This document shows positions 12,842 to 50,406 of a DNA stretch of 51,854 nucleotides, one piece after another (the first letter of the stretch is position 1; the number at the start of each line of letters is the position of its first letter). Source of the stretch: Bilabrum cf. latius (lineage: Eukaryota). The DNA lies in contig CBCXTV010000008.1 in assembly GCA_965178125.1 (NCBI GenBank), forward strand, positions 1 to 51,854, in the 5' to 3' direction. Made by a program: the position numbers and the translations under genes. Below the pieces are notes generated by a model. It saw only the letters and a program-made list of their open reading frames with translations, was not told where the DNA came from and did no database searches.

Positions 12842-13179
12842 CGCGAAAAAAAAGTATGATGCGACGGGTGATCTACTGGCGCGGGCGGCGCGCGGCAAAA
12901 CCTGGGAGCAGTCTCCTGGGACCAGAGTCCTAGAAACGGCTAATGGCGGAATGATGCACACGTAGTGAATGCCATCCACTGCGGGGCGAAAGCAAGGACA
13001 CGACCGGTGGCTGGGCGAGATGACTTGATCGGATTGGCCTGTCGACTTCAGCCGATCGGCATCCGCACGACAGGCCACACACATGCTGCTTTGGTTCGCC
13101 GTGTCATCGCCCGAGTGGTCCACAGGCCGTTTCGCAGGCCACACCTCTGACGCATGCTGAATCAACATTCTGCCGGACA

Positions 13180-14880: not shown

Positions 14881-16289
14881 CCCCCTCAATCTCCGGCCAG
14901 TGTTCATTGACCTGCTGAGGGGAGAGAACGTCGTCGTCCCGCTGCACCACGGCGCGCCTGGTGTTGTTGGTCTCCACCTTCAGCACCAGCTGTTCGTCAG
15001 ACTTGAGGACCCGGCCATCGGTCCACATGAGGTTCGCCGTGGGATACGGAACGATGAGCTCCACACTGTCGTCGAGCTTCTCGGGTGCATGAAGCATCGA
15101 GGCCGTATGGCCGAGGACATTGAGCTCGAGAAAGAGTTCCAGCGGGAGTCGATCTTCAGGTTGGAAAGAACTGTGAGGATCTGCCGGCTTCAGCCGATCG
15201 GCATCCACACGACAGTCCTCACACCTCGCTTCCGAGGTTTCGCCCGCCGAACCCGTAAGGAGCACCGTCGCGAGAACCTGCTGCATCGCAGGATCTTCGT
15301 GAATGAAGAACTCAGAGAGAAGAGACTGCCTGGTCCCGTCGCTGTCGCCGAGGTCACTGCTGCGCTCCTCTAGAATGGTCGACAACCTTTGCACGCTGTC
15401 AGTGGCCATCGACGCTGCGTCCGACGGGACGACACCGTTGTGTTGTGCCTGCTGCTCGACGAGATCCACGGACTCCGCGTTGCAGTAGAACTGGATCACG
15501 CAATACTTGGCCCAGCATGAGCCCACTGCTGCCTGCACGGAGAATCGAGGGATATGGCCGGCGTGATCTGCGACTTGTTCATGGAAGACATACGGTCCGC
15601 CGCCGCGTGGCCACATCATGCTGACGCACAGCTCATGCCCATGCGTTCCTCCGATGTAGCGTACGCCAACGCCGGCCTTCACCGCAACGACATTGTCGAG
15701 CTGGAGATGGTTTCCGCCAAAGAACCGAGCCGCGCACAGGAACTCCGCCCTGAACTGCGATGAGAGCGGGCTCGCGGTCCTGCGCCAGCCACTTGGCGTC
15801 TTCTCCGGGCCCAAGTTGATGGTGGTCCCTTCATTGATCTGATTTACCATTCGCACCACGGTCGACCACACGGTCCGATGCACGGGGCCCCGAAAGTGCC
15901 GGCACTTATATTGCACAACGTAGCGTAGGAAAGATGGCGCCTAACATGACGTATTGCCACCTCATACAATCCTCGCAACCAACGTAGCGTGATCATGCCC
16001 CGGGACAGGTTGGTGAGGTCGACCACGGTGGCTGGGCCGTACCATCCAGAGACGTCCTTGGTCGATGGTTCCCGGTAGAAGTCAACCTCGTCGCCCAACT
16101 GAAGATGGAGCTGCTCTCCCGCAATTGTAGTGCGAGTGCCAAGTGCTCGGTTGATCCTTGCCTGGGCCGACCCCTCGACAACGGCCTGAACGGCCAGCTC
16201 TCGTAGACGGTGTGTGCTCAAGAGGTCGGGGATCCTGGTCGCACCATCTGGATAGTCGATCTGGTCGGCACTGGGCAAGATATGCGGCA

Positions 16290-16930
16290 CTCGGCCATAG
16301 ACGGCATTGTACGGGGTTGAGCCATTGACGGTGAGGAGTGCATTGCCTGCGAAGACTGCCTCTGCGAGCACCCGTTCGAACGGAACGCTCAATCCGTCGA
16401 CGTTGCACTGCGTCACAAGTCGGTGCACGCAGTCTCGGAAAATGGCGCCCCGGCGCTCAATGTACCTCGCGTGCGTATCCTTGGGGCGCACCACCAAGCG
16501 CACACCATGGTGGTTCAAGAAGAGCTTCGCATCGTCGCTGCCTGAGATGCCTCCCTCGCCGTCCATGATAAGCTCCTTCGGAGGGCCGTGTGTCTGGAAC
16601 CAGAGACGGGAAATGCCGTTGGTCAACGTGGCTGCCTCCTTGTTCGGGATCACCTCGGCCGCATGCCACCTCGTGCAGCGGTCGAGCATGTGAAGAATGG
16701 TGTGCCCGGACATGAAGATCAGGTCGCACTCGACCTGCTCATTGAACCGATCAGGAATGGCTGCATTGCTCGCACTCGTTGGCCCTGGCCTGCTCCACTC
16801 ACGGCACACTGTGCACGAGTGCACGATACTAGGCACCAAGTCAAGTACCTTCTGCGGGACTCCTGCTCGGTGGAGCATACGCGTGAGCGTCTGAGCCGAG
16901 GCGTGCCACCATCTGACATGCAGCTTGCGC
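16290..16930 (-). CDS. Integrase HHCC and DDE core (copy 1)
   Basis: LHVRWWH...CTVC; FNEQVECDLIF; PKELIMDGEGG; HARYIERRG. Confidence 0.92.
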
Positions 16931-19900: not shown

Positions 19901-22900
19901 TGGAACAGAGACTCGCATGCATCGGAGTCCTGAAGGTGTTTGTCGTAGTCGGCTAGGGCCTGCTCGAACTTGGCCCGGAAGACGCTGTGCTCCTGGTACT
20001 CGTAATCGCCGTAGCACTTGGCATGCATACGGCACCCGCACGAGAGAACCACCGTGTTGGACTCGGCAGACTCGACGTGGCCATCGTCGTGTTTCACCTC
20101 GTACCACGGCTTCTGGCAGACGGCGCAAGAGTCGTGGCTGCGGTCGCGAGGCTGCTCCTGCTCGCCAGCAGGCGGCCCCGCCGAACTGCCGGCAACGACA
20201 TCATCACATTGAGGTGCTGCCGGTGCGGTCGTCGCGGGCGCGTCGTCCCTGCGGGGTGTTGCTCGCCTAACCTGCAAGGGGTCCTCAACCGGTGTGTCAG
20301 GGGCGGCGCGCTTTTCCACGGACGACTCGCGGGGTTGCGACGTCGAACGCTCGGATGAACTGGGGCTGCGAGAGGTACGCCCTAGGCGTCGTATCCCCTG
20401 CTTCTCGATCGACTTCTGAACGTATGGCTTCCGACCCCTGCGTCGCAAAACTGGCGCCCGCGCAGACCCGAGGTTCTTGGCGGGCGCAGACGACGTCGCC
20501 GGAGGTGTTGGCTGAGTCAACTCGGCTGCCGCCCGGAACGGGGCGGCCAAGTCGAAAGACACGTCGTGCATCGAAACGTCCTGGCCCGCCGGCAAGGGGG
20601 CCAGGCTTGGGTACGTGATCGGCGTCTCGTCGAGCATGACTGCGCTCCCAATGCCTGAGGCTGGCGCCGACGGCGGCGCGGCTGGAGGCGGTCGGAGCTG
20701 CGGTCTCCACTCGGCATAGCCTGCAATGCCTTGGGCACTCGCAACGGGTGTAGAAGGCGCAATTGATCGACTCTGCGTAGTGCTGCTTCCCAGGGCGCTC
20801 TGCGCCACACTGATCACATTGAGCGCCACGTTCGTCAAAGCGCCCCATGCCTGACCACCAACCGTGTGAATTGCAGATTGGCTGGCGGGGTTCAGCCGAT
20901 CGGCATCCCCACCACCAGCCTGTCCGGCATCCGCATCGTTCACTGGCATCGTCTGGCCAACAAATGTGCCATACATTGAACGGCTCGGCACCGGCTGTGT
21001 CCGCTGCGTACTTCCACTGCTGGCCGAGTTCCTGTCTGGCGTGAACGACATGGGTACGCCGGTGGTGAACACTGGGACGCCCTTGGTGTTGGGGTTGCCC
21101 ACGTAGTTTGCGGTCGGCGGCTGAGTGCTTCCTGCTAGCCCTGTGTTCGGCGGTCTCGGGGCCGGCGTAGGCTGCGTCGGCCGAAGGCTGGCGTCGATCA
21201 GGTCCTGGTACATCGTCGACGGACTTGGGACCGGCGCCGGCTGCGTCGGCCGAAGACTGGCATTGATCAAGTCCTGGTATGCTGAGCCCACTGCGGCACC
21301 TGTGACCTGCATGGAGGCCTGCACGAGGGTGTGCTCGTAGAGCTCTTTGCCGATCTTGTCCCGCCAGCATTGACCCATCTCAGCAACATAGTCGCGGGGC
21401 TGCCGCGGCCCCTCGCGTTGCTCTGCTCCTTGCTGTTGCCGCAGGAGGTCCCGGTTCGATCGGATCACTTCGGCGAGATGATAGCTGCCGGGCCGAGCAG
21501 TCAAATGGTCGGCATCTCGGTAGAACTGGGGGGCGAAGTGTTCCTTCTTCTGCTTCGTGTGCTTGAAGAGCTCCACCACTGTGTCGCTCACTCGGTCGGC
21601 TGCTCGATCGGTGCTGGCGACCAGGTGTCCTCCGCCATCGTCGCGCTGGCAGTAGCCCTGTTGTCGCTGGTAGCCGTCCAAGCGCTTCTTCTCGTAAAGA
21701 GTCGGCAGTGGGGCAGCTCCTGGTTCATGGTCAACGACTGGTACTTCTTGTCCCAGGTGTACATGTCCTTCTCTTCAAACTTGTTGGTGCCACTGTCGCC
21801 ATCAGCGTACGACGGCTGCTGGCTGCTCGCGCTCGCGGGGAGGTAACCTGCCCTCACCAGACCCGGACCGGAGCCACTAGTGCTCGTGTGACTGGTGTGT
21901 GAGGCGGCTGCGTCGTCGCTGTACTGGGGGTTCGTCATGAAAACCTGGCGATAGTCACCGGACCCAGGGAATTGGTTCTACCTGGGAGTGGAAGAGGACT
22001 GTGGAATGTCCATCCACCACTTGGGCACGCGCAAGCTCTTCGTCGTTCCAGAGAGCGTCGGACGTGTCGACCGGCCTCGTCATGTGTGCGTTGACCATGA
22101 AGCCCTGGAACATCGGATTCCGCTCGGCGGGCCCTTGCGAGAAGGAAGATGCTGCACCTGGTCCCATCTGCCATTGCGACCACGAGTTCCCACCATAGTG
22201 GACAAGCTGATCGTTTCCGGATTTCCCTCCTTTCCCACCGCCCTTCTGAGGGCAGAGGAGCGGCGGCAAAGTGCTCCTCGGATCCGCAGATGCGACACGT
22301 CATCACCTTTCCATCTGATCCGACGGGATTCCGCATTCGTCCGAAACCACCTGCTGAGGAGACCTTGCCCTTTCCTTTTCCTTTTCCCTTCCCTTTGTTG
22401 AACAGGAAGGTGTTGAAGTCGTGCATGTCCTGGGGATCGCTGGCATCGGCTAGATATTGGTGGTGGCGCCGAGTGAAGGGCTTTCCCTGGTAGGGCCGTC
22501 TTTTCTAGAAGTGTCCGGCCTGGTCGCGACGAAATTTGAAGAAGCGGAAGGCCCTGCGGAACCGTCTGGTCGGGCGCCGCATCGTGCGGCGCCAATCTCG
22601 CTTGGCCTTTCGGTACTGGAAGTAGATCTGCTCGTCGCGCGTCTCGGCCTGACTGGGGTCGATGTCGTCCTCGCCGTAGTCAGAGGAGGTGGCCGACGAG
22701 GACTCGGCATCTGACTCATACAGCTCCCCATGGGTCATCAGGACGATCATATTGTCCTCGCCTTGCAGCGAGGTCGGAGCTCCCTTCGACTCGGCGACCG
22801 GAAAGACTGTTGCATATGAAGGCTGAGCGGCACAAGCTGACGAAGCGGCTTCAGCCGATCGGCATCCACACGCTCCGTCTTGCACATTGACCGGATTCCA

Positions 22901-24001
22901 TGCCATAGGGGTCGGCCCCTGATAGAAGCTAGGCACGCATGCCTTGGCTCCCTTGTCCGGCTTGCTGTCCTCATGCATGTGGGGCTGCTCCGCCTGGAAG
23001 TAGCGGGGCGCGTCATGGCGCGCCGGTCGAGCTCGGCTCCGTCCATCGGGGAAGGTCTCAGTGATGCCGACGAGGGGGTTGGACGCGTTCTGGTCCTGCA
23101 GGGAGGGGCATAGGACTTGATATCATTGACCATGTCCGTATAGCCAACCTGCGTCGTGGGCAAGACATGGTCCGGAAGGCGTCTCGTGATCTCCCACAAA
23201 GCGTGCTGCGGGAGCCCACTCAGTCGGACCATCTGGTGGCAGTGGTGACGCCACGGAAAGAACTCCTTCCCTTCTTCGAGCTGTCGTGTCCGGAGATACT
23301 CATAGCGATCGTGCATGTGTTCAAACGTCTCCGTCGGGTACCGCTCGAACCGGTGAAGCTCGTCGTCGATAGCGGCCTGATCGTCGGCCGCCCTGGGCGC
23401 ATACTTCTCCACGAGATCGGAGATGATCATCGACACAGGGTCCTGGACGTGGCCGGTCGCCTCATTCGTGCGGCCACGGACAAGGTCGGTCACCCTCCAT
23501 CGCTGTCGTAGGAGAGCGGCACTGCCCTGCAGACCGTTGGCGATGATGTTGCCTATCTCGTGGTGCTGGTATCGAGTGACACTGAGCCATAGCGCCTGCA
23601 GGTCCTCGATGTATTCCCGCAAGGTGTAGCCGCGATCGGCGGGGTTCCAAGAGGGCGGCGCCGTCAGGTTGCCCAACGTGATCGTGCGCGCTTGCATGTA
23701 CGGGATCGCGTAGGAGACGACGGAGAGGATTGCTGCAAGCACCATCGCGTGAGCCATCCCCAACATGTAGTGCACACGGCTGTGGATACCGTCGGAGGGC
23801 TGGGTACGCTGCTGCGCCATCGGGGTGATTTCCGACGTCCGGTCTGTCGTGCGGCTCGCCTCCGTCACGTCTGTCACCGATTGTTTCATTGAACCGTCAT
23901 CGTCAAGGCTGCCGCCGGGTGGTGAGTTCGGCGGCTCAGGCGTCTCCGAGGTCGGAGACGTAGGAGTGGATCGGTAGGACAGAAAGTCCTGCAACCACGC
24001 T

Positions 24002-24013
24002 GCTCCGCTACCA
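24002..24013 (-). promoter_or_regulatory. Primer-binding site, initiator-Met-type tRNA (TGGTAGCGGAGC)
   Basis: Starts TGG immediately after the 5' LTR and resembles the iMet PBS TGGTAGCAGAG. Identical in copy 2. Confidence 0.85.
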
Positions 24014-24289
24014 GGTCGAGAGACACCCGCCTGGCTTACGGGATCGTGCGCTCTTGAGCCCAAGTAGTACATCAAGACGATCTGCATGACCATACGGCGG
24101 ACTGCCATGGCTGCTGTGCAAGGGAGGTGAAGCTTTTGCTGGGTGAGCGCAAGGTGTTCGCAAGTCAGAAAGGCGTCTCGGGGTGCGCTATACAAACGTC
24201 AAAAGGAAAGACAAAGAGTCAAATGGCTTGCTGCAGCATTAGCCTGAGCCGTAGCTGCGAACAAGTCAATGGACAGTTGCACTGCGAGT
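24014..24289 (-). repeat. 5' LTR of copy 1 (276 bp)
   Basis: Direct repeat of 4343-4618, followed by the PBS. Confidence 0.95.
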
Positions 24290-25243
24290 GGCGTCGCACT
24301 CTGGGGCGCCGGCCTGGGAGGGACCCGCATATTCGGGTCAGGCATGCGAGGTGGACTCGCACGGGGCGGGCTAGGCTGCCGGGGAATTCCGGCGGAGTCC
24401 CGCCTTCCCGCCTCAAGGGCGCGGGTCGGCGAATTCAGGGGCGGGCGAGCCCCACGTGCATCGTGCATACCTTGCAACTGTGCCCGCAGGTCTTGTTCTC
24501 CACGGATCCGAGCTGCCGTCTCGGCCTCTACGAGGGCGGTAAGGCGATCCAAGCTGTCGGAGTTCGCCTGGACCTGAGTCCGAAGCTCCCTTGCGGAGAC
24601 CTCAACCGAATGACGCAATTTACGTCCGAATTCGCGAAAAAAGACCATGCATCTCAGAGCGAGTGGGGATGGCTTCTTGAGGATCCGAATTCGCGCTGGG
24701 ATCTGAGGCGCATTCTCCGAATTCTTTGGCCTCTCAGGCATCCCTGGAGGTACGCGAAAACATGCTTCCTGATCGAGGGCCATTGGGGCTGGTACCGAAT
24801 TCTCCGAATTCCCCGAGGACACTTCATGCACAAGGTAGGGAACACGCAGGCCGGCGTCGCCATATTTTCGGCTGCGCGCGGCTGGCGACCCTTCGCTTGT
24901 GTCGCCGCCGGTGACCCGCTTCCGTGTGCCAAGAGCGGGCAGGCGGTCCGGCGTCGACGGCGCCGGGCGCCTCGGTGACGCGGGCGGCGTTGCGATGAGG
25001 TGCTCCTCCGCCTGCCCCGGCCCATGCAAGCGAGGAGTGACGTCGCCGGCGTCGGCACCCAAGCCCTCGCCAAGCAGCGTCGCCACATCAATGGGAGGCG
25101 GATCAGCATACAACCTCCAGTCGTGCAAGAGCTGCTGAGTCTGCGAATCAGAGTCTGCTGTGGGGTGGGCTGGGTCATGCTGCTGCTGAGATTCGGAATC
25201 TGCGGGCGGGCGCAACGGCATGGCGTGTAGCTGCGGCTGGGCA
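24290..25243 (-). CDS. Open frame of unknown function (Pro-rich plus short coiled coil), cut by the LTR and by the gap
   Basis: Part of ORF 24199-25569, open from the gap to the LTR edge. No recognisable domain. Confidence 0.3.
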
Positions 25244-25443
25244 NNNNNNNNNNNNNNNNNNNNNNNNNNNNNNNNNNNNNNNNNNNNNNNNNNNNNNNNN
25301 NNNNNNNNNNNNNNNNNNNNNNNNNNNNNNNNNNNNNNNNNNNNNNNNNNNNNNNNNNNNNNNNNNNNNNNNNNNNNNNNNNNNNNNNNNNNNNNNNNNN
25401 NNNNNNNNNNNNNNNNNNNNNNNNNNNNNNNNNNNNNNNNNNN
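25244..25443. other. Assembly gap (200 N)
   Basis: Run of exactly 200 n. Confidence 1.
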
Positions 25444-27646
25444 GCCGGGTGGGCATGCGGCAGGCGGCCCAAGAGCTCCTCGCCCGTGCACAAGGTAGGG
25501 TCGCCGATGTGCTTCTGGACCGCGAGGGCCTTGAGGTCCTTGGTGTCGTCGTCGGGGATCTCCGCCCACACGCGGTACACCTGCCCGTCCTTGACGAACT
25601 CCAAGAGCATCCCGTACCTCGTCTTGTACTTCGCCCCGCAGACACAGTACCAGCGCTGCTTCGACGCCAGCGGAGCCTCGTGCAAGCGCCTCAGCTCGCG
25701 CTCAAGGTGACCTTGCAGCACGGGTCGTCGGCGCGGCCCGCCATGCAGACGTAGTAGGCCCTGAAGGCGCAGTTGCCGACGAAGTACCACTGGTCCGTGT
25801 AGTCCGCCGCCTGCACCATGCGCCACCGCATGTCCGGGTCCGCAATGTGCGAGAACGCCCGACGACGCCCCGCCGCCGTCTGCAACCACTCCGCGGCTTG
25901 GTCGAGGTCGCGCTCGCACTCGGCGACATCGTCGTAAGCCGGCCCGGCGTGGCAGGTGAGACACCGACACCACGCTCGAGCCGGCTCATCAAGATGTCGC
26001 CTTGATGGAGGCGTGGTGGATGTCGTCCGCCTTCAGAGGACGAGCTCGGCGATGGGAGCAAAGATAGACTTCAAGAAGCTCAGGCCGACGTTGATGTGTC
26101 GCTTCATCAAGGTCTTGCGCTTCTTGTGGCTGAACTCCGCGAGCGCCTCGGCGGCGAGGCCTTTCCGCTGCTCCGGAGTCATGCCCCGGAGAGGTGTCCT
26201 CGGCGCTACCGACGACCTTGTCGCCGCTGCTGGCGGCGGCGCCGGCGTTGGGCTTCGCATCCTCGGGCGTGACGACCTTGAGGAGGTCGCCGGCGACGGC
26301 GAACTCCATCTTGGAGTCGGATCGACCATGACCTTCTGGAAGCGCGCCGCCCGCTCGAGGTCCTTGCTGCAGCGCTTCGCCACGATGGCCTTAACCGCCT
26401 GCTCCTCGTCACAGTTGAACGACTCCGCGGCGCAGGTCCTGCACAGGTACTCGTGGGTCGGGCGCGGGGCGTCCCCGGGAACTCGACCTCGCGGTCGGTG
26501 CCCGCGACCTTTTTCCAAGCCCGCACGAGCTCCGGCGGCGGCTGGACCGGCGTGGCGAGCATCTGGCGCTTCTTGTGCCACTCCCCGCAGCCCTTGCGCT
26601 CGCGCTCCTGCCCCGGCGGCGGGCGGAAGTCATAGGTCCGCAAGAGCTCCGGCGGCACCTCGAGGCCCATTTCGCGCAACTTCCGCTGCGTGAGCTCCTT
26701 CAGCGGCGGGTCTTCGGTCACGTGCGTAACCTTAAACGGCCCCCACGCCGCGCCTGCGTCATCACCGTCGCGCCCGACGACCGCGCCGGCGGCGGCTGCG
26801 GCGCCGGCGACTTCGTGCTGGGCTGTGATCGGCCCCGGCGGTGTCTGCATCGGCGCCGTCCCCTCCGACATCGTCGCAGCAGCCGGCGGCGGCTTCGCGG
26901 GCTCCGAGACGCCATTGGGTCCAGGCGCGCCCCCTGGCGACGTGGTCGGGTGAGACACCGACACCACGCCGCCCGGGGGCATCCCGGCGCACGGCGCGGA
27001 GGCCGGCGGTCGGCGGCTTCGCGGGCGCCGAAGTGCTCGAAGCGTCGGCGGACCCGGGCACACCCCCTGCGATGTGGCCGGGTGAGCCACCGACACCACG
27101 CTGCTCGGGGGCGGCCCGGCAGGCGGCGCCGAGGCCAGCGGCGACGGCTGTGCAGGCGCCGAAGTGCATGAAGCGTCGGCGACCCCTGGCGTGCCCCCCG
27201 GCGGCGCGGGCAGGTGAGCCACCGACACCGCGCCGCCCGAGGACGGCCCAGTCATCGGCGACGGGTCGAACGGCGGCGGCCTCGCGGGCGCCGAAGTGCC
27301 CGGCGTGTCCGCGGGCCCGGGCACACCCCCTGCGACGCGGCCAGGTGAGCCACCGACACCGCGCCACCCGGGGGCGGCCCAGACATCGCGGCGGCGGGCC
27401 CGTCGAGGTCGGCGTAGTCGCCCACGGGTCGTAGACGGCGCCGGTCGAGCTCACGTACGTCGCGGACGGCGGCACGCGCGGATCCCCGCCACCCGAAGTG
27501 GACACGGCGGCGAGCGCGGCCCGGCGAGCCTCCAAGCGGCGCGTCAACTGCGCCCGAAGCAGAGCGGCGGTCGCCTCGGCGTCAGCCAATCCCGCCCGGA
27601 GCTCCTCCTCGGCGAGGGCGTCCGTCGGATCCTGAGATCCGGACAT
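25444..27646 (-). pseudogene. Frameshifted Cys-rich hypothetical ORF downstream of the CRE-like RT, with Pro/Ala-rich repeat N-terminus
   Basis: ATG MSGSQDP at 27646. Pieces 26206-27324, 26033-26581, 25691-25885 and 25444-25700 give CGEWH...YLCRTC, FRAYYVCMAG...PCC and QRWYCVCGAKYKTRYGMLLEF. Confidence 0.55.
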
Positions 27647-29622
27647 CTTGTGACAAGACACGGCCTGAACGCGTCGAGGTGCGGGGGGGGGGGGGAAGCG
27701 CAGTGCCGCGAGGCACGACACCTCAGAGCCTCACACCCACACCGACGGGAAATGCGATTGACCACCGACCGACGAGGGGCACACAGGGTCCTGGCAACAG
27801 AACAACAAGCACAAAGATCCACCGGACCCCCAGCCCCCGCCCGTCCCGCCCGGCACGCCAGCCCAGCACGCCCGCCGCGCACCCTCCGCCCGGCACCACG
27901 CCCCGCCGGCCACCCGCCCCGACGCCGCCGTCCCAGAGCGTCGCCCCTGCCGTAGGAGCGAACAAGCACACGCCGGGCGCCGCCACCGCGAGCTTTGCTG
28001 GCCAGGTGAGCCACCGATACCAGATGCGCCTCGGCCCGCGCTCCTTGCGCAACCCCGCCCGCACCCCGGCCACGGCGCCGCCCAAGCTGGCCAGGTGAGC
28101 CACCGACACCAGCCCCGGCGGCCCGCGCACGCCTCAAGGCGCAACGCCGGGGCCGCAGCGCGCTAGGAACACGACGGGGCGCCAGCCGTCTCGCCGGCGC
28201 TGCGCAAACACATCTCCGCCATTGTGGACTGAAGCGCCTGGGCGACCAGCCATCGGCAATGTTGCAAAGCCGCCCCCGCCTCTTGGGGGGCCGCCCGCCG
28301 AGCCAATTCCCGGGTCCACGCGAGCGCCTCCGCACCCCAACGCCCGCGCGCGTCCACAACAAACGGAACGAGGCCCTCGCCGGGATAGCGGCGGTGCTTC
28401 GCCTTCTCCCGCCGGGCGAGGACCATGCCGGCGCCCACCGAGTTGTGGGCCCCGGCCACGACGACGGAGACGTCCACATTGACTTGCTGGCCCTGCGCGC
28501 CCCGGAGCACAACATCAAGGATGGCTCGCTCCTCGGTGCGATCCCATTTGGGGACGTGCTGCTCGACCGCCGGCGACTGCCCAAGCTCCGGGCCCAAGAA
28601 GCGACGGCTGTCGCGGACGGCATTGTGGCGGGCCACACTTCCGCCCCAACGGCACACGTCAAGGCGTGCCGCACGGCATCCGCCGCGCCGCCGCCGCCAC
28701 ACAGGCGGCCCGTACCCACGGCCTTGTTCTGGCAACAGATGGCCGCCGCAGGCACCACCCGCGCGCAGCCCAACCGAAGGCGGGCCGCGACGGCCGCGTG
28801 CGCGTCCGGCAAAGGCGCCTCGTCGGGCACCGGGAAAAGCCATGCCGCCGCCTCACGGCCACCACACGCTTGGAACCGAGCGGCGTCGGCGACATACAGG
28901 TCCGCCTGATACGGGTGAGCGCGGCCTGATTGACGGCGTCCGTCAACACGGCCTGACGCTTCGGCGCAGAAGCAGCCAAGCACCGCGTCCACCGGTCCAC
29001 GCGCAGGGGCTGGCCCGTGCACACACGCACCTCGTCGTCCAGCGAGCGGATCTTGTCCGTCAACGCCGGCCGACGCTCCTCCAATTCCAACCACGTGGTG
29101 ATGCCCAGCCCGCCCGCCACTTGAGACAACCCGCCCTCCCAGGCCCCAAGCCAGGCGGCAGCCCGGCGACGGACCGCGCTTCCCAAGCCGAACCCCCCGG
29201 ACGCCGCCGGCAGGAACAGCTGTTCCGTTTGCGCGGCCGTCAGCGTGGTCCCCCAAAGGGCCGCCACCAATGTGCCCACCTGCCCATCGACTCGTGTTGC
29301 CCATCGCTCACTGACCGGGATAACGCGAAGGATGTGAACGCACGCTCCCTGCGTCCATGTGCGAAGCAACGTGAGCACATGCACAAGCGGAAGACAAGCG
29401 CGAAACAAACATTCAAGCGTTCCATGTAGGCCTGATGACGGTGAAGAAAAGACTCGGGCTCATTCACGCTGCACGTGGTGTCCAAAGGGACGCCCGTGCG
29501 GTCGTCGTCGGGGTCTCGGGCCCAGGCGGGCGTGACGCGCCGTCCCCTGCGCGGCCAGGTGAGCCACCGACACCGCGGGCACCCTCCCCTGTGGCCAGGT
29601 GAGCCACCGACACCACAAGGGA
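25945..29622 (-). repeat. 9 dispersed stem-loop repeats with head TGTCGGTGKCTCACC
   Basis: Plus-strand GGTGAGMCACCGACACC at 25955, 26949, 27081, 27213, 27344, 28005, 28094, 29558 and 29598, with variable flanking inverted repeats. Confidence 0.9.
26885..27385. repeat. Degenerate ~132-bp tandem repeat, about 4 units
   Basis: Motif recurs at 26949, 27081, 27213 and 27344 (spacing 132, 132, 131) along with GGCGCCGAAGTGC-like and GGCACACCCCCTGCGA blocks. Confidence 0.8.
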
Positions 29623-30683
29623 GGCTCGAGCGTAGGGGACCGGCGTGCCCACCGCCACGAGCTGAGAAACCCGATATGGGGCCAGCTCCGGGGAAGGGGG
29701 GCGTTGACGGCATGGGGAGCCCACACCTGGGTCTTGGCCGGATGCACCAGCAAGCCCATAACAACGGGCCCGCTCGGTGAACGCTGGATACCTACCACGA
29801 CCGCAGCGGCTGTGCCAACAAAGTACGTGTTGTCCTGGTATGCCACCACGGTGGCACCAGGGTCCACATTGCGCATGGCCACCTGGCAGTCGGCCAAAAG
29901 GGACCGGACAGCCAGGCAGTAGACCGCCGGGGACACAGGGCAGCCTTGGTCCAGCCCGAGGTGTTGAGTCACCGTGACCGAGTCCTCGTCCCCCCGCCCC
30001 ATGATCACATGAGTCGCGCTACCCTCCAACCAGGCGCCGGCCAAGCCCAAAGGTCCGGCGCATGCAGCCGCAAGCCACCCAAGGCGGCATCACGGTTGAG
30101 GGACGTGAAGGCGTCCTTGATATCGACACTGCCGACCACGGTGTCCGCGCGGCACGCGACCGCGCCCTGGAGATGACGATGCAAGGCACCCACGCCATCC
30201 GGCGCGAGCCCAAACTGCTGGGGGCCGGCCGCGCCGACCAAGGCACCCGACAACACGCGGGCGATCGCCCGGCCCAACAACCGGCGAAGCACACCGCCGC
30301 AGCCGAGGGGCCGCACCCCGCCGGACTTATTGGGCAGACCGACGAGCCGGGCCGCGAGAAACGCCCGCAGCACGGAAGTCGGGACACGCCCCCCGGCCAA
30401 GCGGACAATAACGCGCGCCACTTCCGTGGCACTTTCAACGTCCGTTGCGAGCGGTGCCCAGTGCTCGTACCGCGATGCCCCCGGCCCCCCACCCGGACGA
30501 CGCGGGTGACGCTTGAAAGCCTTGGCGCGGGTCGGTCGGTCGGAGGGGAACGGGCGGGCGGATCCTCTGGCTGAGTATCTCCCATCTTGGCAAGAACATC
30601 CTCCGCGCCGCACCGCTCTTGGGCCCCCCAGGCCGCGCTCTCTATGCGGCCGGGAGGTCTCAACTGCCTCCAACAACTGACGC
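28163..30683 (-). mobile_element. Decayed CRE/SLACS-like non-LTR retrotransposon ORF (RT, Zn finger, restriction-like endonuclease), 5' end cut at the copy 2 LTR
   Basis: GPGASRYEHW, LPNKSGGVRPLGCGGVLRRL, PQQFG, VDIKDAFTSLNR, GLDQGCPVSP, VVAYQDN, QLFLPAASGGFGL, C..C..HALTC, RHNAVRD, ILDVV...VDVSV...REKAKHRRY...LVPFVVDARGRWG across frameshifted ORFs. Confidence 0.88.
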
Positions 30684-30942
30684 ACTCGCAGTGCAACCGT
30701 TCAATGCCTTGTTCGCAGCTACGGCTCAGGCTAATGCTGCAGCAAGCCATTCGCGTTTCTGTGTTTGTATAGTCCTTTCACCGTGACACTTCCCGTGCCT
30801 GCGTATTCCCTGCGCTCAGAAACATCACTCCCTTGCGAGCAGCCATGGCATTCCGCTGTGTGGTCATGCAGATCGTCTTGACGTACTACTTGGGCTCAAG
30901 AGCGCACGATCACGGAAACCAGGCGGGAGGTGTCTCTCGACC
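30684..30942 (+). repeat. 5' LTR of copy 2 (259 bp)
   Basis: Direct repeat of 50407-50667 (5 substitutions and one 2-bp indel by eye). Confidence 0.95.
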
Positions 30943-30954
30943 TGGTAGCGGAGC
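30943..30954 (+). promoter_or_regulatory. Primer-binding site, initiator-Met-type tRNA (TGGTAGCGGAGC)
   Basis: TGG directly after the LTR end; same as copy 1. Confidence 0.85.
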
Positions 30955-31064
30955 AGTGTGGTTGCAGGACTTTCTCTCCTACCGATCCGCTCCTACGTCT
31001 CCGACCTCGGAGACGCCTGAGCGCGAACTCACCACCCGGCGGCAGCCTTGACGATGACGGTTCA

Positions 31065-34000
31065 ATGAAGCAATACGTGACAGACGTGACGGAGGCGAGC
31101 CGCACGACAGACCGGACGTCGGAAAGCACTCTGAAGGTGCAGCAGCGCATCCAACCCTCCGACGGTATCCACAGCCGTGTGCACTACATGTTGGGGATGG
31201 CCCACGCAATGGTACTTGCAGCAATCCTCTCCATCGTCTCCTACGCGATCCCGTACAGGCAAGCGCGCCAGATCACGTTGGGCAACCTAGACGGCGCCGC
31301 CCTCCTGGAACCCCGCCGGTCGCGGCTACACCTTGCGGGAATATATCGAGGACCTGCAGCGTTGGCTCAGTGTCACCCGGTACCAGCACCACGAGATAGG
31401 CAACATCATCGCCAACGGTCTGCAGGGCAGTGCCGCCTCCTACGACAGCGATGGAAGACGACCGACCTTGTCCGGGGCCGCACGAACGAAGCGACTGGCC
31501 ACGTCCAGGACCCCGTGTCGATGATCATCTCCGATCTCGTGGAGAAGTATGCGCCCAGGGCGGCCGACGATCAGGCCGCCATCGACGACGAGCTCCATCG
31601 GTTCGAGCGGTATTCGACGGAGACGTTTGAACAAATGCACGACCGCTATGAGTATCTACGGACGCGACAGCTCGAAGAGGGGAAGGAGTTCTTTCCTTGG
31701 CGCCACCATTGCCACCAGATGATCCGACTGAGTGGGCTTCCGCAGCACGCCTTGTGGGAGATTACAAGACGCCTTCCGGACAATGTCTTGCCCACGACGC
31801 ATGTTGGATACACGGACATGGTCAAGGACATCAAGACCTACGCCCTCTTGAAGGACCAGAATGCGTCCAATCCCCTCGTCGGCATCACCGAGACCTTCCC
31901 GATGGACGGAGCCGAGCTCGACCGGCGCGCCACGACGCGCCTCGTTACTTTCAGGCAGAGCAGCCCCAGATGCTTGTCGACAGCAAGTACAGCGAGAGGG
32001 CCCAGGCGTGCGCACCGAGCTTCTATCAGGGGCCGACCCCGATGACATGGAATCCGGTCAATGTGCAAGACGGAGCGTGTGGATGCCGATCGGCTGAAGC
32101 GCTTCGTCAGCTTGTGTCGCTCAGCCCTCATATGCATCAGTCTTTCGGCCGCCGATTCGAAGGGAGCTCCGACCTCGCTGCAAGACGAGGACAACATGGT
32201 CTCCTGATGACCCATGGGGAGTTGTACGGGTCAGACGCCGAGTCCTCGTCGGCTACCTCCTCCGACTACGGCAGAGGACGACATCGACCCCAGTCAGGCC
32301 GAGACTCGCGACGAGCAGATCTACTTCCAGTACCGAAAGGCCAAGCGAGATTGGCGCCGAGCGACGCGGCGCCCTACCAGACGGTTTCGCAGGCCTTCCG
32401 CTTCTTTAAGTTTCGTCGCGATCAGGCCGGGCACTTCCAGAAGAGACGACCGTACCAGGAAAGCCCTTCACTCGGCGCCATCACCAGTACCTAGCAGACG
32501 CCAGCGACCCTCAGGACATGCACGATTTCGGCACCTTCCTGTTCAACAAAGGAAAGGGAAAAGGAAAAGGAAAAGGCAAGTTCTCCACAGCAGGTGGTTT
32601 CGGGCGCCTGCGGAACCCCGTTGGATCCGATGGGAAGGTGATGACGTGTCGCATCTGCGGGTCCGAGGAGCACTTTGCCGCCCGCTGCCCTCAGAAGGGC
32701 GGTGGGAAAGGAGGACAATCCGGAAACGATCAGCTGTGCACTATGGTGGGACTCCATGGTCCTCATGGCAGATGGGCCCAGGTTCTACATCTTCCTTCTC
32801 ACAAGGGTCCGCCGAGCGCAATCCGATGTTCCAGGGCTACATGGTCAATGCACACATGACTAGGCCGGTCGACACGTCCGGCGCCCTCTGGAACGACGAG
32901 AGCTTGCGCGCGCCCCAGTGGGGGATGGACACTCCACAGTCCTCTTCCACTCCCAGGTTGAACAATTCCCTGGGTCTGGTGACTTTCGCCAGGTCTTCAT
33001 GACGAACTCCCAGTACAGCGACGACGCAGCCGCCTCACACACCAGTTCCACGAGCACTAGTGGCTCAGTTCCGAGTCTGGTGAGGGCAGGTTATCTCCCC
33101 GCGAGCGCGAGCAGTCAGCAGCCGTCGTATGCTTGTATGGCGACAGTGGCACAGCAAGTTTGAAGAGAAGGACACGTACACCTGGGACAAGAAGTACCAG
33201 TCGCAGACCATGAATCAGGAGCTTCCCCACTGCCGACTCTCTATGAGAAGAAACGCTTGGACGGCTACCAGAGGCAACAGGGCTACTGCCAGCGCGACGA
33301 TGGCGGAGGACACCTGATCGCCAGTACTGATCGAGCAGCCGACCGAGTGAGTGACACAGTGGTGGAGCTCCTCAAGCACACCAAGCAGAAGAAGGAACAC
33401 TTCGCCCCTCAGTTCTACCAAGACGCCGACCGTTTGAATGTTCGGCCCGGCAGCTATCACCTCGCCGAAGTGATCCGATCGAACCGGGACCTCCAGCGGC
33501 AACAGCAAGGTGCAGAGCAGCGCGAGGGGCCGCGGGCAGCCTCGCGACTACGTTGCTGAGATGGGTCAATGCTGGCGGGACAAGATCGGCAAGGAGCTCT
33601 ATGAGCACACCCTCGTGCAGGCCTCCATGCAGGCCACAGGTGCCGCTGTGGGCTCGGCATACCAGGACTTGATCAATGCCAGTCTCCGGCCGACGCAGCC
33701 TGCGCCGGTTCCAGGTCCTTCGATGATGTACCAGGACCTGATCGACGCCAGCCTTCGGCCGATGCAGCCTACACCGGCCCCGAGACCGTCGAATTCAGGG
33801 CCAGCCGGGAGCACTCAGCCGCCGACCGCAAACTATGTGAGCAACCCCAACACCAAGGGCGTCCCAGTGTACACCTCCGGCGCACCCATGTCGTTCACTC
33901 CAGACAGGAACTCGGCCAGCAGTGAAAGCACGCAGCGAACACAGCCGGTGCCGAGCCGCTCAATGTATGGCACATTTGTTGGCCAGACGATGCCAGTGAA

Positions 34001-37000
34001 CGATGCGGATGCCGGACATGGTGGTGGTGGGGATGCCGATCGGCTGAACCCCGCCAGCCAATCTGCAATTCACACGGTCGGTGGCCAGGCATGGGGCGCT
34101 TTGACGAATGTGGCGCTCAATGTGATCAGCGTGGCTCAGAGCGCCCTGGGAAGCAGCACTACGCAGAGCTATTCGATTGCGCCCTCGACACCCGTTGTGA
34201 GTGCCCAAGGCATTGCAGGCCATGCCGAGTGGAGACCGCAGCTCCGTCCGCCTACAGCCGCGCCGCCGTCGGCGTCGGCCTCAGGCATTGGGAGCGCAGT
34301 CATGCTCGACGAAACGCCGATCACGTACCCGATCCTGGCCCCCATGCCGGCGAGCCAGGACGTTTTGATGCACGACGTGACCTTCGATGTGTCCGCCCGT
34401 TCCGGGCGGCAGCCGAGTCGATTCAGCAAACATCTCCGGCGACGGCGTCCGTGCCCGCGAAGGACCCTGAGCTTGCACGGGCGCCAGTCTCGCGACGTAC
34501 GAATCGGAGGACACCCGTTCAGAAGGTGACCAAGAAGAAGGAGGCACAACGCCGAAGGCGCACCTCACGCAGCCCAGTTCATCAGAGCGTTCGCCGTCGC
34601 AAGTCCGCGAGTCGTCCGTGGAAAAGCGTTCCGCCCCCGACACACCGGTTGAGCACCCTTTGCAGGTCAGGCGAGCAACACCCCGCATGAACGACGCGCT
34701 CACGACGACCGCACCGACAGCCCCTCAATGTGACGATGTCGTCGCCGGCAGTTCGGCGGGGCCGCTTGTTGGCGAGCAGGAGCAGTATCACGACCACAGC
34801 CACGACTCCTGTGCTGTCTGCCAGCAGCCGTGGTGCGAGGTGAAGCACGACGATGGCTGCGTCGAGTCTGTCGAGTCCAACACGGTGGTTCTCTCGTGCG
34901 GGTGCCGTTTGCATGCCAAGTGCTACGGCGAGTACGAGTATCAGGAGTACAGCGTCTTCCGGACCAAGTTCGAGCAGGTCATAGGTGACTACGACCATCA
35001 CCTGCAGGGATCCGATGCATGCGAGTCCCTGTTCAACTATCTGACCTGCCCGAAGTGCACCGAGGCCATCTATGTCAAGACCTATGTTGACGCCGAAGGG
35101 AACCCTCGCGATGGCTTGGCGAAGGCCCCCGTGTTGTGGGCCGTCCACCCGCCGGGCACCATGGAGCCGGGTTCTCATCGTGTTGACGGCCTCTTAAGCA
35201 CTCCGACTGCTGCTTGGGCTCCAAAGGTCAAGCAGGCCTTCCGGCAGTACGCGATGTCCAAGCCGGAGCTCCAGTGGCTGCAAGTGGATCCAGAGCTCAG
35301 TTCGAGTGCGGAGGAAGACGAAGTGACGACGATGCTGAACGAACCAAAGACGACCACCGACGTGACGACGGAGATGGAAGGGGCAACCCACTACACGACA
35401 TACGAGAACATGCACTATCAGGACGCACCGCTGCGGGTCAATGGAGCTATGGCGACTACTACCACATGAACACGAGGCCGCTTGACGGCAGCAGCGCCCT
35501 CCTCATTGACCCGGGCTCCGTGGGTAACCTCTGCGGTGATCAATGGGCCCTTGGACTTCAAGCGATCGACCATGGGTATCGACCGTCAGAGTACACCAGG
35601 CCGAAGCCCCTCCGCGTTTCGGGGGTCGGCCACGGGTCGCAGTGGTGCAATAAGGACGTGCGTTTGCCCATCGTGCTCAAGTCCGACACAAGAGCCGACG
35701 CCATTTTGGGCGATTTCATCACTCCGATCGTGCCGAACTCGGAGCTGCCAGGTCTCTTAGGCCTGGCCACCATGCGCAATGCTCGCGCGATCCTCGACCT
35801 TCAGGACATGCGTATGTACCTCTGTGGCGAAGGGGACTACGACTTGACGAAGGCGCTGCCTCCTGGCACGGAGAGCTTCAAGCTTGAGACGTCACCCAGT
35901 GGTCACCTGCTGCTCCCCTGCAGCAACTTCGGCGAGAAGAGCCTCGCGGCGAGGAAGATCAGCCTGCTGACGCAGGAGAGCAGCGAGCAACCGACCATGG
36001 CCGAGCAGACCGAGAACAAGGTGGTGTCGTTTCGCACTGTGGCGCCGACCACGCCGAAGTCCCCGGCACCGCCGGCGCCCCCGATCCTTCCGGTCCATCT
36101 CGAGACCATGGGAGCGGACTTTGCCAGTCAGCCAGAGAGAGTGAAGGCCCCACCATGTGGATGCCGATCGGCTGAAGCTGGTGGGGTCCCTTTTGACAAA
36201 CCTTGCGCAGCCTATCCGTGCAGTGTGTTCAATGTCTCAGGGTTCAATGCATTCTTTGTGGCGGGAACCGCGCATGTGATTGGCAGTCGCCCGCCAGAAG
36301 TAGAGCATCTGCAAGGACCACGGGCTGAGCGGCTGCACCCTGCACCGCCTGTCCGACGCGATGCGCGCCCGCAACAAGGACCATCTCCCGTGGCAGGGCA
36401 AGCAGCTGCTCATTGAAGTGCCCCCACAGATGAACCCCGGGTTCGAGCACACGCTGAAGAGTCTGGTCTTGCCTGCCATCAACTCTGGCACGAGCGTCAC
36501 CGTGTTCTCTGTGCCCGATGGCAAGCGGCAGAGCCAGCGACACACCTGGCTCGACATTTGGAACAAGGTGCATGGCACGGACATCTTCCGCTTCGTTCGC
36601 CGAGGCATTCGCACTTTCGTCCCCGACAGCGGCGACAACCGTCAGGTGTATGTCGCCAGCACATGCCGCCTCCCAGACGACGCAGACAGCGACTCCATTC
36701 CAACGAGAGGGACGACGTGTGGCCTCTTCCGCCGCATCTTCGTGTTACTTGCGGTTGCCTTGTTGATCCTCTTGGGTGCCAAGGTACTTGCGTCTGGCGG
36801 CCGGGATCAGGGCGTCCCAGGACACACCAGACTCAGCAGTTTGGGCCCGCCCGCGGGCGGACCCAGCAGATCACTCAACAAGTACCACCTACGCGTGAAC
36901 ACGAACACGACAGAGCCGCCTCCGGGCGGACACGAACTCCAGACACAGCAGGCCCCAGAAGCAGGACACAGCGGCAGCCAGTCACAACAGCAGTGCGATC

Positions 37001-50100: not shown

Positions 50101-50406
50101 GCTGCAGCCCGTGCCGACCAGTGACAGTACAGCCGACAAGAATGTCGGGAGCTTTAGGGGTTGACACAGCGGTTCTTGACACACCCCGGCCTTCCTTTGT
50201 TCATCCTTTGCGTGAACGCGTCGGGCCTGGCCCGACAGACACCGCAGTATAGTCTGTTTGCGAAGGCGGGCACGATATGAGCCCTATGCGCTGCGAGCGC
50301 GACCTCCGCAACCTTTTCGTTCAATGTTCGGGCCATACAGGGCTCGAGCATGTACGACCTGCAGTCTGACTGTCTTGGGCCGTACCGCTCGCCCAGGACA
50401 CACCAG

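Follow-up and report, generated by a model that had tools for sequence, protein, structure and literature searches.

Nine hairpins on the minus strand of a decayed non-LTR retroelement copy share one constant head, which is carried by stems that differ from copy to copy. The stems covary under the constant head, and they do so alike in these hairpins and in those of two giant LTR retroelements that flank the copy and have a head of their own. The window analysed is the whole stretch of 51,854 nucleotides of Bilabrum cf. latius contig CBCXTV010000008.1. As a tentative explanation, drawn from the sequence, we propose that the hairpins are cis-acting elements of the sense transcript of an abundant non-LTR retroelement, the constant top of which would be read by a protein partner and would mark the transcript of the family.

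Head, stems and pairing

The whole window was searched with the pattern TGTCGGTGKCTCACC, with at most one mismatch allowed. Nine matches were found against 0.01 expected, a number reached in none of 100 shuffles, which bears out the count given in the sequence-only reading. They are confined to the minus strand of positions 25955–29612, where the 15-nt head reads TGTCGGTG(G/T)CTCACC; it starts at 25955, 26949, 27081, 27213, 27344, 28005, 28094, 29558 and 29598. Eight of the nine heads are exact, the exception being the copy at 28005 (TATC). The G/T position is in the apical loop (T variant at 25955 and 26949). A looser 18-nt pattern, with up to three mismatches, returned exactly the same nine sites (0.36 expected). 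The nine copies represent about four independent sites, because four of them share a 132-bp tandem repeat and 28005/28094 and 29558/29598 are adjacent pairs. Mutual exclusivity of the two heads within the window is supported: all nine heads of this set (CRE type hereafter) are inside 25955–29612, and all 26 LTR-type heads are inside the two LTR elements. The covariance models of Rfam 15 gave no match at the gathering score over the whole window, and the only three matches between 25800 and 29800 (E 1–4.3) were far below the gathering scores. Literature searches for the head sequences and for the concept turned up no account of such hairpin arrays.

Each of the nine heads is closed by its own, differing inverted repeat of at least four Watson–Crick pairs. 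In site order (25955 to 29598) the stems have 6, 5, 4, 10, 5, 4, 5, 5 and 5 Watson–Crick pairs, or 6, 10, 4, 10, 9, 4, 7, 5 and 12 pairs when sense-strand G·U is counted. Among random sites of this GC-rich region, 0.9% give four or more Watson–Crick pairs across an 18-nt gap. The 17-mer also occurs by chance in metagenomes (120 occurrences in 119 loci); none of the 120 has at least four Watson–Crick pairs at the same offset, and the YGGCC tail is absent from all of them. The design is two-tiered, with a lower stem of 4–16 bp in which the sequence is free and pairing is kept, and a constant top. The base of the top consists of the closing pairs G-C, G-C and U·G and then a 3x2 internal loop (GUC opposite UG), and its apex is a 4-bp GGUG/CACC stem with a GCU or UCU triloop.

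The hairpins, all on the minus strand, are preserved to different degrees. Hairpin 1 (25938–25986; head 25955–25969, T variant) has a predicted energy of −36.6 kcal/mol (RNAfold; z −5.38), equalled by 0 of 200 shuffles. Hairpins 2–5 occupy units 1–4 of the tandem repeat. Hairpin 2 (26932–26977; head 26949–26963, T variant; z −3.37) has a 10-bp stem that includes one G·U, plus 5 bp more; hairpin 3 (27064–27110; head 27081–27095; z −0.31) is decayed in this copy, with four Watson–Crick pairs left and three A·C or C·A breaks; hairpin 4 (27196–27242; head 27213–27227; z −3.66) has a perfect 10-bp stem, and hairpin 5 (27327–27373; head 27344–27358; z −2.10) one of 9 bp, two of them G·U or U·G. Hairpin 6 (27998–28023; head 28005–28019, one mismatch; z +0.56) has a 4-bp stem and is the last one in the spacer past the stop of the RT/endonuclease-like ORF (28163–28165). 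Hairpin 7 (28077–28122; head 28094–28108; z −3.35), in the same spacer, combines five Watson–Crick pairs and two G·U with another helix beyond. Hairpins 8 (29550–29577; head 29558–29572; 5-bp stem; z +0.47) and 9 (29583–29624; head 29598–29612; z −3.92) are in the pol linker, and the 12-bp stem of the latter includes one U·G. The folds at 27081, 28005 and 29558 are no better than shuffled in this decayed copy. The four stems that had been quoted earlier are present as written (10 bp at 27213, 10 bp with one G·U at 26949, GCTGG/CCAGC at 28094 and TGTGG/CCACA at 29598).

In the alignment of the nine CRE-type hairpins, 79.7% of cells are paired versus 69.0 ± 2.4 in shuffled alignments (0 of 500 as high), and two-sided changes are seen in 17 cells versus 9.3 expected (0 of 500 shuffles), both comparisons being uncorrected for the relatedness of the rows. 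Pairing drops to 36–49% when the partner is slid. At one pair the tandem units are split 2:2 between U-A and C-G. The strand preference was also analysed. Within helices of the sense strand, the CRE type has 4 G·U and 0 A·C, as expected from the earlier claim of G-U pairing on that strand, and the LTR type has 7 G·U versus 2 A·C. The sense fold is more stable than the antisense fold in 8 of 9 CRE-type and 24 of 26 LTR-type hairpins (mean gap 4.1 kcal/mol in both sets), a gap that is in part counted repeatedly because the constant head contributes to it each time.

Conservation of the head is apparent from the tandem units, in which 14 of the 15 head columns are invariant versus 57 of the 121 remaining columns. 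The majority of the family rebuilds the YGG tail, through T>C at 26946, G>C at 27210 and an added C at 25952; at the last of these sites the 3′ tail of hairpin 1 is TG here, and the extra C restores TGG in about half of the family contig depth. The family majority also has a C at 27102 that restores a G-C pair in hairpin 3, an argument weakened because contigs in the tandem repeat can land on the wrong unit; 162 contig pieces fit two places in the mapping to the family.

Each flanking LTR element is about 20 kb long and has 13 hairpins, with a different head on the same two-tier design; the claim that a constant head on a variable stem occurs in both an LTR and a non-LTR element thus holds, down to the fold and the covarying stems. 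The left element (4340–24289, minus strand) has LTRs at 4340–4618 and 24011–24289 (98.2% identical). The right one (30684–50667, plus strand) has LTRs at 30684–30942 and 50407–50667 (97.3% identical), a TGG-initiated PBS-like stretch directly after the 5′ LTR, and Pfam matches to zf-CCHC (22.6 bits, above the cut-off) and rve (19.8 bits, below it). The core of the LTR-type head is a perfect 10-nt palindrome, GCCGATCGGC, of which exact search gives 23 copies; in three LTR-type copies it is broken by C>T, maybe through simple decay. In the left element the cores begin at 4862, 5043 (GCCGATCGGT), 8108, 8724, 10318, 12745, 13051, 13633, 15193, 17195, 18761, 20895 and 22854, and the right element has the same 13 sites, none of the 13 being present in one element only.

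The two elements are 90.8% identical over 19,675 bp. Most of this divergence arose while the lineages were active, because the LTRs of each element differ from one another by only 1.8–2.7%. The elements differ at 6 of 300 head positions (2.0%) and 16 of 234 stem positions, versus 9.2% overall. By our reading of the alignments, about eight stem substitutions keep pairing and about six break it, so that the enrichment is modest. Beyond the closing pairs, the LTR-type stems have nothing in common. ORFs of up to 1127 codons read through these hairpins, in frames that are open for up to 1056 codons upstream and 872 codons downstream. An independent origin of the heads in each family is plausible, and the 'general family-specific barcode system' of the sequence-only reading is an extrapolation from two families in one window.

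The carrier element and the placement of the hairpins

The carrier is a decayed copy of a very abundant non-LTR element with a reverse transcriptase (RT) and a C-terminal restriction-like domain. The RT region (29675–30683, minus strand) is truncated 5′ by the right LTR element. The frames of the window score 16.1 and 22.8 bits with Pfam RVT_1, under the 29.6 cut-off. The region has 131 homologues at E ≤ 0.001; all six long homologues scanned pass RVT_1 (56–80 bits), and tblastn places the long homologues on 30526–29675. No LTRs were found to flank the RT unit, and the RT is of the non-LTR type. It is followed, in the window and in the long homologues, by a conserved domain that is a candidate restriction-like endonuclease (28166–28663, minus strand; 13 homologues with conserved residues), characterized by invariant D, E, D, S, K and Y and a GLVPFV..GRWG block. 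This domain has no match in Pfam and no sequence match in the PDB. It was modelled with AF2 at pLDDT 53.6, and the only structure to support it, weakly, is the C-terminal part of silkworm R2 (8ibw_C; Z 4.3, rmsd 4.2, 108 residues, 18% identity, rank 28). Exo_endo_phos families gave no match at E ≤ 0.01 in six long homologues; Exo_endo_phos_2 matched one of 13 short homologues (E 0.28), and the copy in the window is cut off at its 5′ end. The order of an RT and then a C-terminal restriction-like domain is supported, and the element may belong with the R2/CRE/NeSL group; the earlier label 'CRE-like' is narrower than the evidence and is not adopted as a placement. Membership of the CRE clade proper (CRE1/2, SLACS, CZAR) would call for an RT that falls into that clade by phylogeny and for spliced-leader genes as specific insertion sites.

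The hairpins occupy either non-coding spacers or stretches in which the protein can accommodate inserts. Hairpins 8 and 9 had been placed in RT coding sequence; they are indeed in the pol reading frame but past the last detectable RT homology. They fill a 95-nt stretch (29534–29628) that is missing from homologue P0023, and the linker differs in length at this point in P0015 and P0017. Hairpins 6 and 7 are 55–160 nt past the pol stop, in the spacer to which they had been assigned. Five copies had been attributed to the ORF downstream (ORF-X; 26033–27640, minus strand); four are inside it and the fifth, at 25955, is just past its stop codon, which is at 26033–26035 in this copy. ORF-X was read from frames and is broken here by frameshifts. 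It consists of an N-terminal helical charged segment, the hairpin-bearing repeat and an orphan C-terminal domain. The repeat (26930–27380, minus strand; period 132, 3.4 units, 77% matches) contains hairpins 2–5, and its translation is a proline-rich linker. For ORF-X, no Pfam match, no recognisable RNA-binding domain and no homologues (227–725 aa) were found. The head is common to ORF-X and the RT unit.

One frame of 414 codons spans three CRE-type hairpins, and the hairpin lengths are not multiples of three. Identity with hairpin introns or introners was rejected: single frames stay open through the hairpins without their removal. The family includes deletion variants between hairpins or repeat units, with joints at 27993>28087, 26906>27063 and 27063>27326. 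Contig depth falls 2–7-fold from bin 27993–28153 to bin 27832–27992, and depth provides no ranking of the parts of the stretch.

Proposed function and alternative explanations

We infer action in RNA, reading by a protein and the purpose of the hairpins. The constant top would be the part recognised, and the stem would merely present it. The most likely partner would be a protein of the element itself, either the RNA-binding surface of the RT or the product of ORF-X, which may belong to the same element. Through repeated binding the transcript would be marked as 'own', to be assembled into RNPs and used in target-primed reverse transcription, and the two copies past the pol stop would be close to where cDNA synthesis would begin. 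The sites would be those of least cost to the element, namely a hypervariable pol linker, a proline-rich repeat and two non-coding spacers. The unlike stems may, in addition, keep the RT from switching templates between repeats and so limit deletions. The co-resident LTR family has the same design with its own head; the head may therefore act as a family label. Extended further, each retroelement family of the organism would have a private, multi-copy RNA address label, with an invariant two-tier top of 15–23 nt on freely varying stems, placed in tolerant coding linkers and spacers and read by its own RNP or capsid protein, a generalization that we consider conceivable but doubtful.

The palindromic core of both heads is superfluous for protein binding and hints at RNA–RNA pairing, against a protein-read tag. 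Self-complementary cores could pair between or within transcripts; through many dispersed contacts the genomic RNA would be joined into dimers or condensed, as by a dimerisation initiation site present in many copies. In the LTR retroelement Ty1, kissing loops mediate packaging of the RNA as a dimer (PMC5454406). The perfect 10-nt palindrome in all 23 exact-search copies of the LTR type and GGUG..CACC within the CRE-type head would suit this role, and a 20-kb RNA would profit from many contacts. However, RNAfold closes the core intramolecularly in all 26 + 9 folds, so that it would be hidden from kissing; an unpaired and variable triplet (G or T) breaks up the CRE-type core, and three LTR-type copies, possibly decayed ones, have a broken palindrome. 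To our knowledge, a need for RNA dimers is not known in non-LTR elements, and we regard kissing as unlikely.

Recruitment of a host factor was considered as well: the heads would bind a cellular RNA-binding protein for export, stability or translation of the unspliced RNA, in the manner of constitutive transport elements, or would shield it from silencing. The structural evidence is the same as for a tag read by the element's own protein, several copies per RNA would suit avidity for a host adaptor, and repeated structured export elements are used by retroelements (PMC4588558, PMC4829213). A common factor should nevertheless select a common motif, and here two unrelated heads are found in two unrelated families; we hold this explanation, too, to be improbable.

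The hairpins could also be selfish palindromic mini-inserts that spread within or between copies at the DNA or cDNA level and are only tolerated, with no use to the carrier. Genes that contain in-frame palindromic repeats are known from bacteria and organelles, the pol hairpins represent an insertion when compared with homologues, adjacent pairs and a tandem array occur among the copies, and some family variants are without the stretch between two hairpins or between repeat units. Presence or absence is, however, identical at 13 of 13 sites in two LTR elements that are 9.2% apart; constant heads on unlike stems would require selection or conversion on the head; and the heads are private to each family within the window. 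We know of no insertion mechanism that inverts and duplicates its target around a constant core, and consider mini-inserts quite improbable. Finally, that the hairpins act as single-stranded DNA in plus-strand cDNA or in the genome, such as in priming, pausing or recombination during reverse transcription or replication, has very little probability. The strand asymmetry would be compatible with it, because sense-strand DNA tolerates G·T pairs as well, and so would the family deletion variants between hairpins, but a cruciform in duplex DNA would favour neither strand, the PBS-like stretch adjoins the LTR rather than a hairpin and there is no tie to known priming points, and we know of no precedent for thirteen priming sites per element.

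Comparison with known systems

How retrotransposon proteins choose their own RNA is only partly understood, and in non-LTR elements the choice is usually ascribed to cis-preference or to a single 3′ signal. Two unrelated neighbouring families, each with its own invariant tops, covarying stems and strand preference, provide a concrete candidate for a self-recognition code that is open to mutation: the head can be altered while the stems stay as they are, and heads can be swapped between the two families. Where copies lie in frames, as several do, the same nucleotides would both form structure and encode peptide. The arrays also show how a retroelement can carry a signal many times with exact repeats kept short, which may limit deletions during reverse transcription. 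If each family does have such a private label, it would correspond, in retrotransposons, to the dispersed packaging signals of viruses, and co-resident families could keep their own machinery from use by one another.

In single-stranded RNA viruses and hepatitis B pgRNA, dispersed stem-loops with a shared loop motif are read by the capsid protein as packaging signals (PMC6281560, PMC8677749). The hairpins described here are similar in that several stem-loops share a loop motif on differing stems (9 copies; 13 per LTR element), coding regions included. They differ in that the viral motifs are short whereas 15–23 nt are invariant here, including a second small stem, and in that the carriers are retrotransposons, in one of which no capsid gene is seen.

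In stringent-type LINEs, the RT recognises a 3′ stem-loop (PMC5135761). Two of the nine hairpins are past the pol stop and may be comparable to the LINE hairpin in the 3′ untranslated part; unlike the single LINE stem-loop, there are seven further copies, which lie within ORFs or in the spaces between them. Kissing-loop hairpins, by which retroviruses and Ty1 dimerise (PMC5454406), likewise have a stem that displays a palindrome within an LTR retroelement's genomic RNA, but those sites are in the 5′ terminal region, whereas 13 per element are spread here over 18 kb of coding sequence and the palindrome folds back on itself in prediction.

The introner elements of Amoebophrya (PMC7789003) are also short repeats with inverted repeats that form a hairpin inside protist genes. 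In these introners the inverted repeats are the hallmark of the family, flanking direct repeats are present and splicing removes the element; in the present hairpins a constant centre lies between variable inverted repeats, and long single frames run through. In-frame palindromic repeats occur as well in Rickettsia genes and in mitochondrial genes of some yeasts. Like the hairpins of the window, they are palindromes in reading frames at tolerant positions, either translated or bypassed. They keep their whole sequence and are found in many genes, whereas here only the top is constant and each head belongs to one retroelement family in the window.

Nine hairpins with a constant head and copy-specific stems

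The head TGTCGGTG(G/T)CTCACC is found nine times in the 51,854-base window, on the minus strand only, starting at 25955, 26949, 27081, 27213, 27344, 28005, 28094, 29558 and 29598 (positions by which the CRE-type hairpins are named). The match is exact in eight copies and includes one mismatch in the remaining one, for a chance expectation of 0.01; the number given by the sequence-only reading was thus recovered, and the four stems that it quoted were each found exactly as quoted. When the window was scanned with an 18-nt pattern and up to three mismatches, the same nine sites were returned with zero degenerate extras. On the sense (minus) strand all copies have YGG 5' of the head and a 3' tail of 2–3 nt, mostly TGG, followed in all nine by CCR and then by the complement of the upstream flank. 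Nine copies do not mean nine events, since four are held by a 132-bp tandem repeat (26930–27380) and two further pairs are close together, with spacings of 89 nt for the two copies after the stop of pol (the frame coding for reverse transcriptase, RT, and a candidate endonuclease) and 40 nt for the two in its linker.

Counted first in Watson–Crick pairs and then with sense-strand G·U pairs allowed, the stems measure 6 and 6 (25955), 5 and 10 (26949), 4 and 4 (27081), 10 and 10 (27213), 5 and 9 (27344), 4 and 4 (28005), 5 and 7 (28094), 5 and 5 (29558), and 5 and 12 (29598). If A·C, i.e. G·U on the other strand, is allowed instead, two of the nine stems become longer, by one pair each. At least four Watson–Crick pairs over an 18-nt gap are present at 0.9% of random sites in the same GC-rich region. 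Metagenome occurrences of the head were used as a null only; they come from at least 119 loci, all single or unrelated and devoid of tail and stem. Among the matches listed there (120 occurrences of a 17-mer), the longest Watson–Crick stem at the same offset was 3 and none carried the YGGCC tail. One unrelated contig (L110, 300–400) contains a 23-nt minisatellite with the T variant of the head twice and no flanking inverted repeat, which we take as coincidence. Viral contigs gave no match to the 22-nt CRE-type head with its closing pairs, and the head search in prokaryote genomes gave two isolated matches.

When the nine hairpins are aligned without gaps, standard pairs fill 79.7% of the pair cells, compared with 69.0 ± 2.4 for shuffled partners (0 of 500 as high) and 36–49% for slid partners. 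Changes on both sides of a pair account for 17 cells where 9.3 are expected (0 of 500), a covariation figure that is lowered because copy 25955 is one base out of register. For most copies, RNAfold returns a lower stem topped by a U·G pair and a 3x2 internal loop, above which a GGUG/CACC stem closes a triloop. Stability exceeds that of shuffled sequences for six of the nine (z from −2.1 to −5.4) and does not for 27081, 28005 and 29558. One pair is U-A in two of the tandem units and C-G in the other two, and four other changes turn C-G into U·G or G-C into G·U; pairing is broken by three changes, all of them within unit 27081. Invariant columns make up 14 of 15 in the head versus 57 of 121 elsewhere.

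Family contigs were also compared with the window copy, using the best 40 of 934 base differences and 12 of 52 indels. Five of these differences are located in hairpins: three rebuild the YGG tail (26946 T>C, 27210 G>C and the insertion of a C at 25952), 27102 T>C rebuilds a G-C pair and 26935 T>C turns a G·A mismatch in the stem of 26949 into G·G. None of the differences in this subset lies inside a head. Restoration of the hairpins by the family majority is supportive but not decisive, since only the best-supported differences are covered and contigs may have been placed on the wrong unit of the tandem repeat. Some family contigs do not have a stretch between hairpins or repeat units (27993–28087, 26906–27063 or 27063–27326), and joints of this kind are what recombination or template switching between repeated heads would be expected to leave.

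The carrier element and the placement of its hairpins

Minus-strand frames from about 30700 to 28163 code for a reverse transcriptase followed by a conserved domain at the C-terminus. The RT frames of the window copy fall below the Pfam RVT_1 cut-off; the RT frame is matched by 131 proteins, and all six long homologues scanned pass RVT_1 and are collinear on the window as far as 28170. The C-terminal domain has 13 homologues (12 at 40–51% identity, one at 33%) with an invariant acidic/Lys/Tyr pattern and zero matches in a Pfam search. PDB sequence searches with the frames for the RT and the endonuclease-like domain, and with the profile of the latter, gave no hits. A low-confidence model of the domain (pLDDT 53.6) aligns only weakly with the C-terminal portion of an R2 structure (Z 4.3, 108 residues, 18% identity, rank 28). 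On the basis of the RT homologues and this domain, we therefore name the carrier a non-LTR element that has a candidate restriction-like endonuclease. The copy is decayed by several frameshifts and its 5' end is truncated at 30683, where the right LTR element starts. The family is very abundant, with 7017, 4433, 2998 and 731 contig pieces on 25900–30700 (80–100% likeness) in four runs from two studies and two coded organisms; an assembly artefact was rejected on these grounds. No relatives of the carrier were found among viral contigs.

The two copies previously assigned to the RT region do lie in the pol frame, but past the end of RT homology (near frame residue 138, about coordinate 29675), in a linker. 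One homologue (P0023) is aligned as far as 29629 and restarts at 29533 with consecutive residues, so that the 95 nt between, with both pol hairpins, are extra. Two others (P0015 and P0017) differ in linker length at this point, and 29534–29718 is replaced in one family variant. P0017, a metagenomic homologue, has about four repeats of ~13 aa in the same linker (residues ~330–420), which may represent a similar array built on a different head.

Two hairpins lie 3' of the pol stop (28163–28165), as the sequence-only reading had it; the downstream ORF (about 27640 to 26033, minus strand) has four and not five, inside its proline-rich repeat, and the ninth, 25955, is just past its stop. A single 414-codon frame passes through three of those four. 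An extra base at 26034, present in most of the family depth, would lengthen the downstream ORF by some 15 codons when the reading frame is followed, and the stop would then be shortly before the ninth hairpin.

The downstream ORF (26033–27640, minus strand) has a helical charged start and ends in a ~160-aa domain. It has zero Pfam matches, and no homologues of its C-terminal domain were found among proteins of 227–725 aa. Since the N-terminal parts of 12 long homologues gave nothing below E 0.07 against 24200–28200, downstream ORFs are not tied to the RT unit by homology, and the common head is the sole link; the ORF could belong with the RT unit as an ORF1-like partner, or else be a piece of a neighbouring copy. 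Past hairpin 25955, a cysteine-rich, coding-like stretch broken by frameshifts (25444–25940, minus strand) runs into an assembly gap; it likewise has no significant match to those N-terminal parts (best E 0.07). Plus-strand homopolymer G runs of about 13–25 bases are seen at 581–592 and at 27676–27690, the latter shortly before the start of the downstream ORF when read in the sense direction.

Hairpins of the giant LTR elements and the preferred strand

The window contains two LTR retroelements of ~20 kb in inverted orientation (4340–24289, minus strand; 30684–50667, plus strand), 90.8% identical over 19,675 bp. Their LTRs are short (260–280 bp; pair identity 98.2% on the left and 97.3% on the right), a TGG-initiated stretch resembling a primer-binding site abuts the 5' LTR, and a zinc knuckle is above the Pfam cut-off while the integrase match is weak. 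Coding is near-continuous in the left element (ORFs of 1124, 851, 1127, 465, 827, 512 and 740 codons), with zero Pfam family matches for about half of it. The juxtaposition of the elements depends on a scaffold join, a 200-N gap at 25244–25443 lying between them; the same applies to the apparent 19.6-kb palindrome with its 6.4-kb centre, an arrangement that may not be real.

Each element has 13 hairpins at the same 13 sites, with the head TG-N-GGAT-GCCGATCGGC-TGAA-N'-C. One isolated match to this head was obtained in viral contigs. Over the 26 rows, 82.8% of cells are paired (shuffled 64.4 ± 1.5, 0 of 500 as high; slid 26–50%), and the six pairs adjacent to the head are 92–100% paired, each with between two and five pair types. 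N and N' (alignment columns 15 and 35; e.g. hairpins 12745, 10318 and 8108) covary inside the head as U·G in 16 rows, G-C in 6 and C-G in 4, with none unpaired, so that the truly constant part is the 18-nt loop region. Between left and right elements, A-U is replaced by G-C at site 4862/50077, and pairing is kept or gained in all three changes at 12745/42176; overall, a manual count on the alignment gave about 8 pairing-keeping and about 6 pairing-breaking stem substitutions. Heads differ at 6 of 300 positions (2.0%) and stems at 16 of 234 (6.8%), compared with 9.2% for the whole element and 321 of 2260 for the flanks, a count inflated by end gaps. As divergence between the two LTRs of each element is below 3%, most of the 9.2% arose in active lineages, and head conservation therefore reflects selection.

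The claim that G·U pairs fall on the sense strand is borne out in both sets: CRE-type helices contain 4 G·U and no A·C pairs, and LTR-type helices 7 and 2; with one count per site, the figures are about 9 to 2. The sense fold is more stable than the antisense one for 8 of 9 CRE-type and 24 of 26 LTR-type hairpins, with a mean advantage of 4.1 kcal/mol in both sets, part of which is accounted for by the constant head. The direction of the asymmetry agrees with a structure on the sense strand, i.e. in the transcript or plus-strand cDNA.

Possible roles and relation to known systems

As had been proposed, the LTR and non-LTR elements share one design: the lower stem varies, a small bulge or internal loop follows, and above it a short GC-rich stem of constant sequence carries an apical loop of 3–4 nt. 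In both arrays the top is invariant, the bottom covaries, the structure is sense-specific and the head is family-private within the window; the sites are spacers or positions where the protein tolerates 10–15 extra residues. Such features are those expected of a protein-binding RNA module selected in the element's own interest, and the role judged likeliest, though with rather low confidence, is that the RNP or capsid protein of the element recognises the element's own transcript. With two families as its basis, the 'general barcode system' of the sequence-only reading is an extrapolation. Rival explanations are RNA–RNA contact, by kissing of self-complementary cores, recruitment of a host factor by the hairpins, and selfish palindromic inserts. 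Exact repeats in a retroelement are lost through template switching, and variable stems may also be favoured for this reason; variants of the family in which the stretch between hairpins or repeat units is deleted do occur.

Other readings were rejected. Conservation at the peptide level is set aside because CRE-type heads occur in three reading frames and LTR-type heads in two, depending on the site (the third has a stop); nor would it explain the complementary flanks. An intron is rejected because single open frames run through the LTR-type hairpins (for as many as 1056 codons on the upstream and 872 on the downstream side). A small structured RNA gene or miRNA precursor is dismissed on stems that are too short and on Rfam, where zero useful matches were found.

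Literature searches, covering the text of articles, returned only an unrelated chickpea miRNA paper for the head sequences and nothing similar for the concept of such arrays. The nearest systems described are the dispersed packaging signals of RNA viruses and HBV (PMC6281560, PMC8677749), the stem-loop at the 3' end of stringent LINEs (PMC5135761) and the kissing loops of Ty1 (PMC5454406). The hairpin introners of Amoebophrya (PMC7789003) have the opposite layout and are spliced out, whereas splicing is excluded here by the open frames. The hairpins of the window would be a variant of cis-acting recognition hairpins that differs in being multi-copy, in-frame and family-private.
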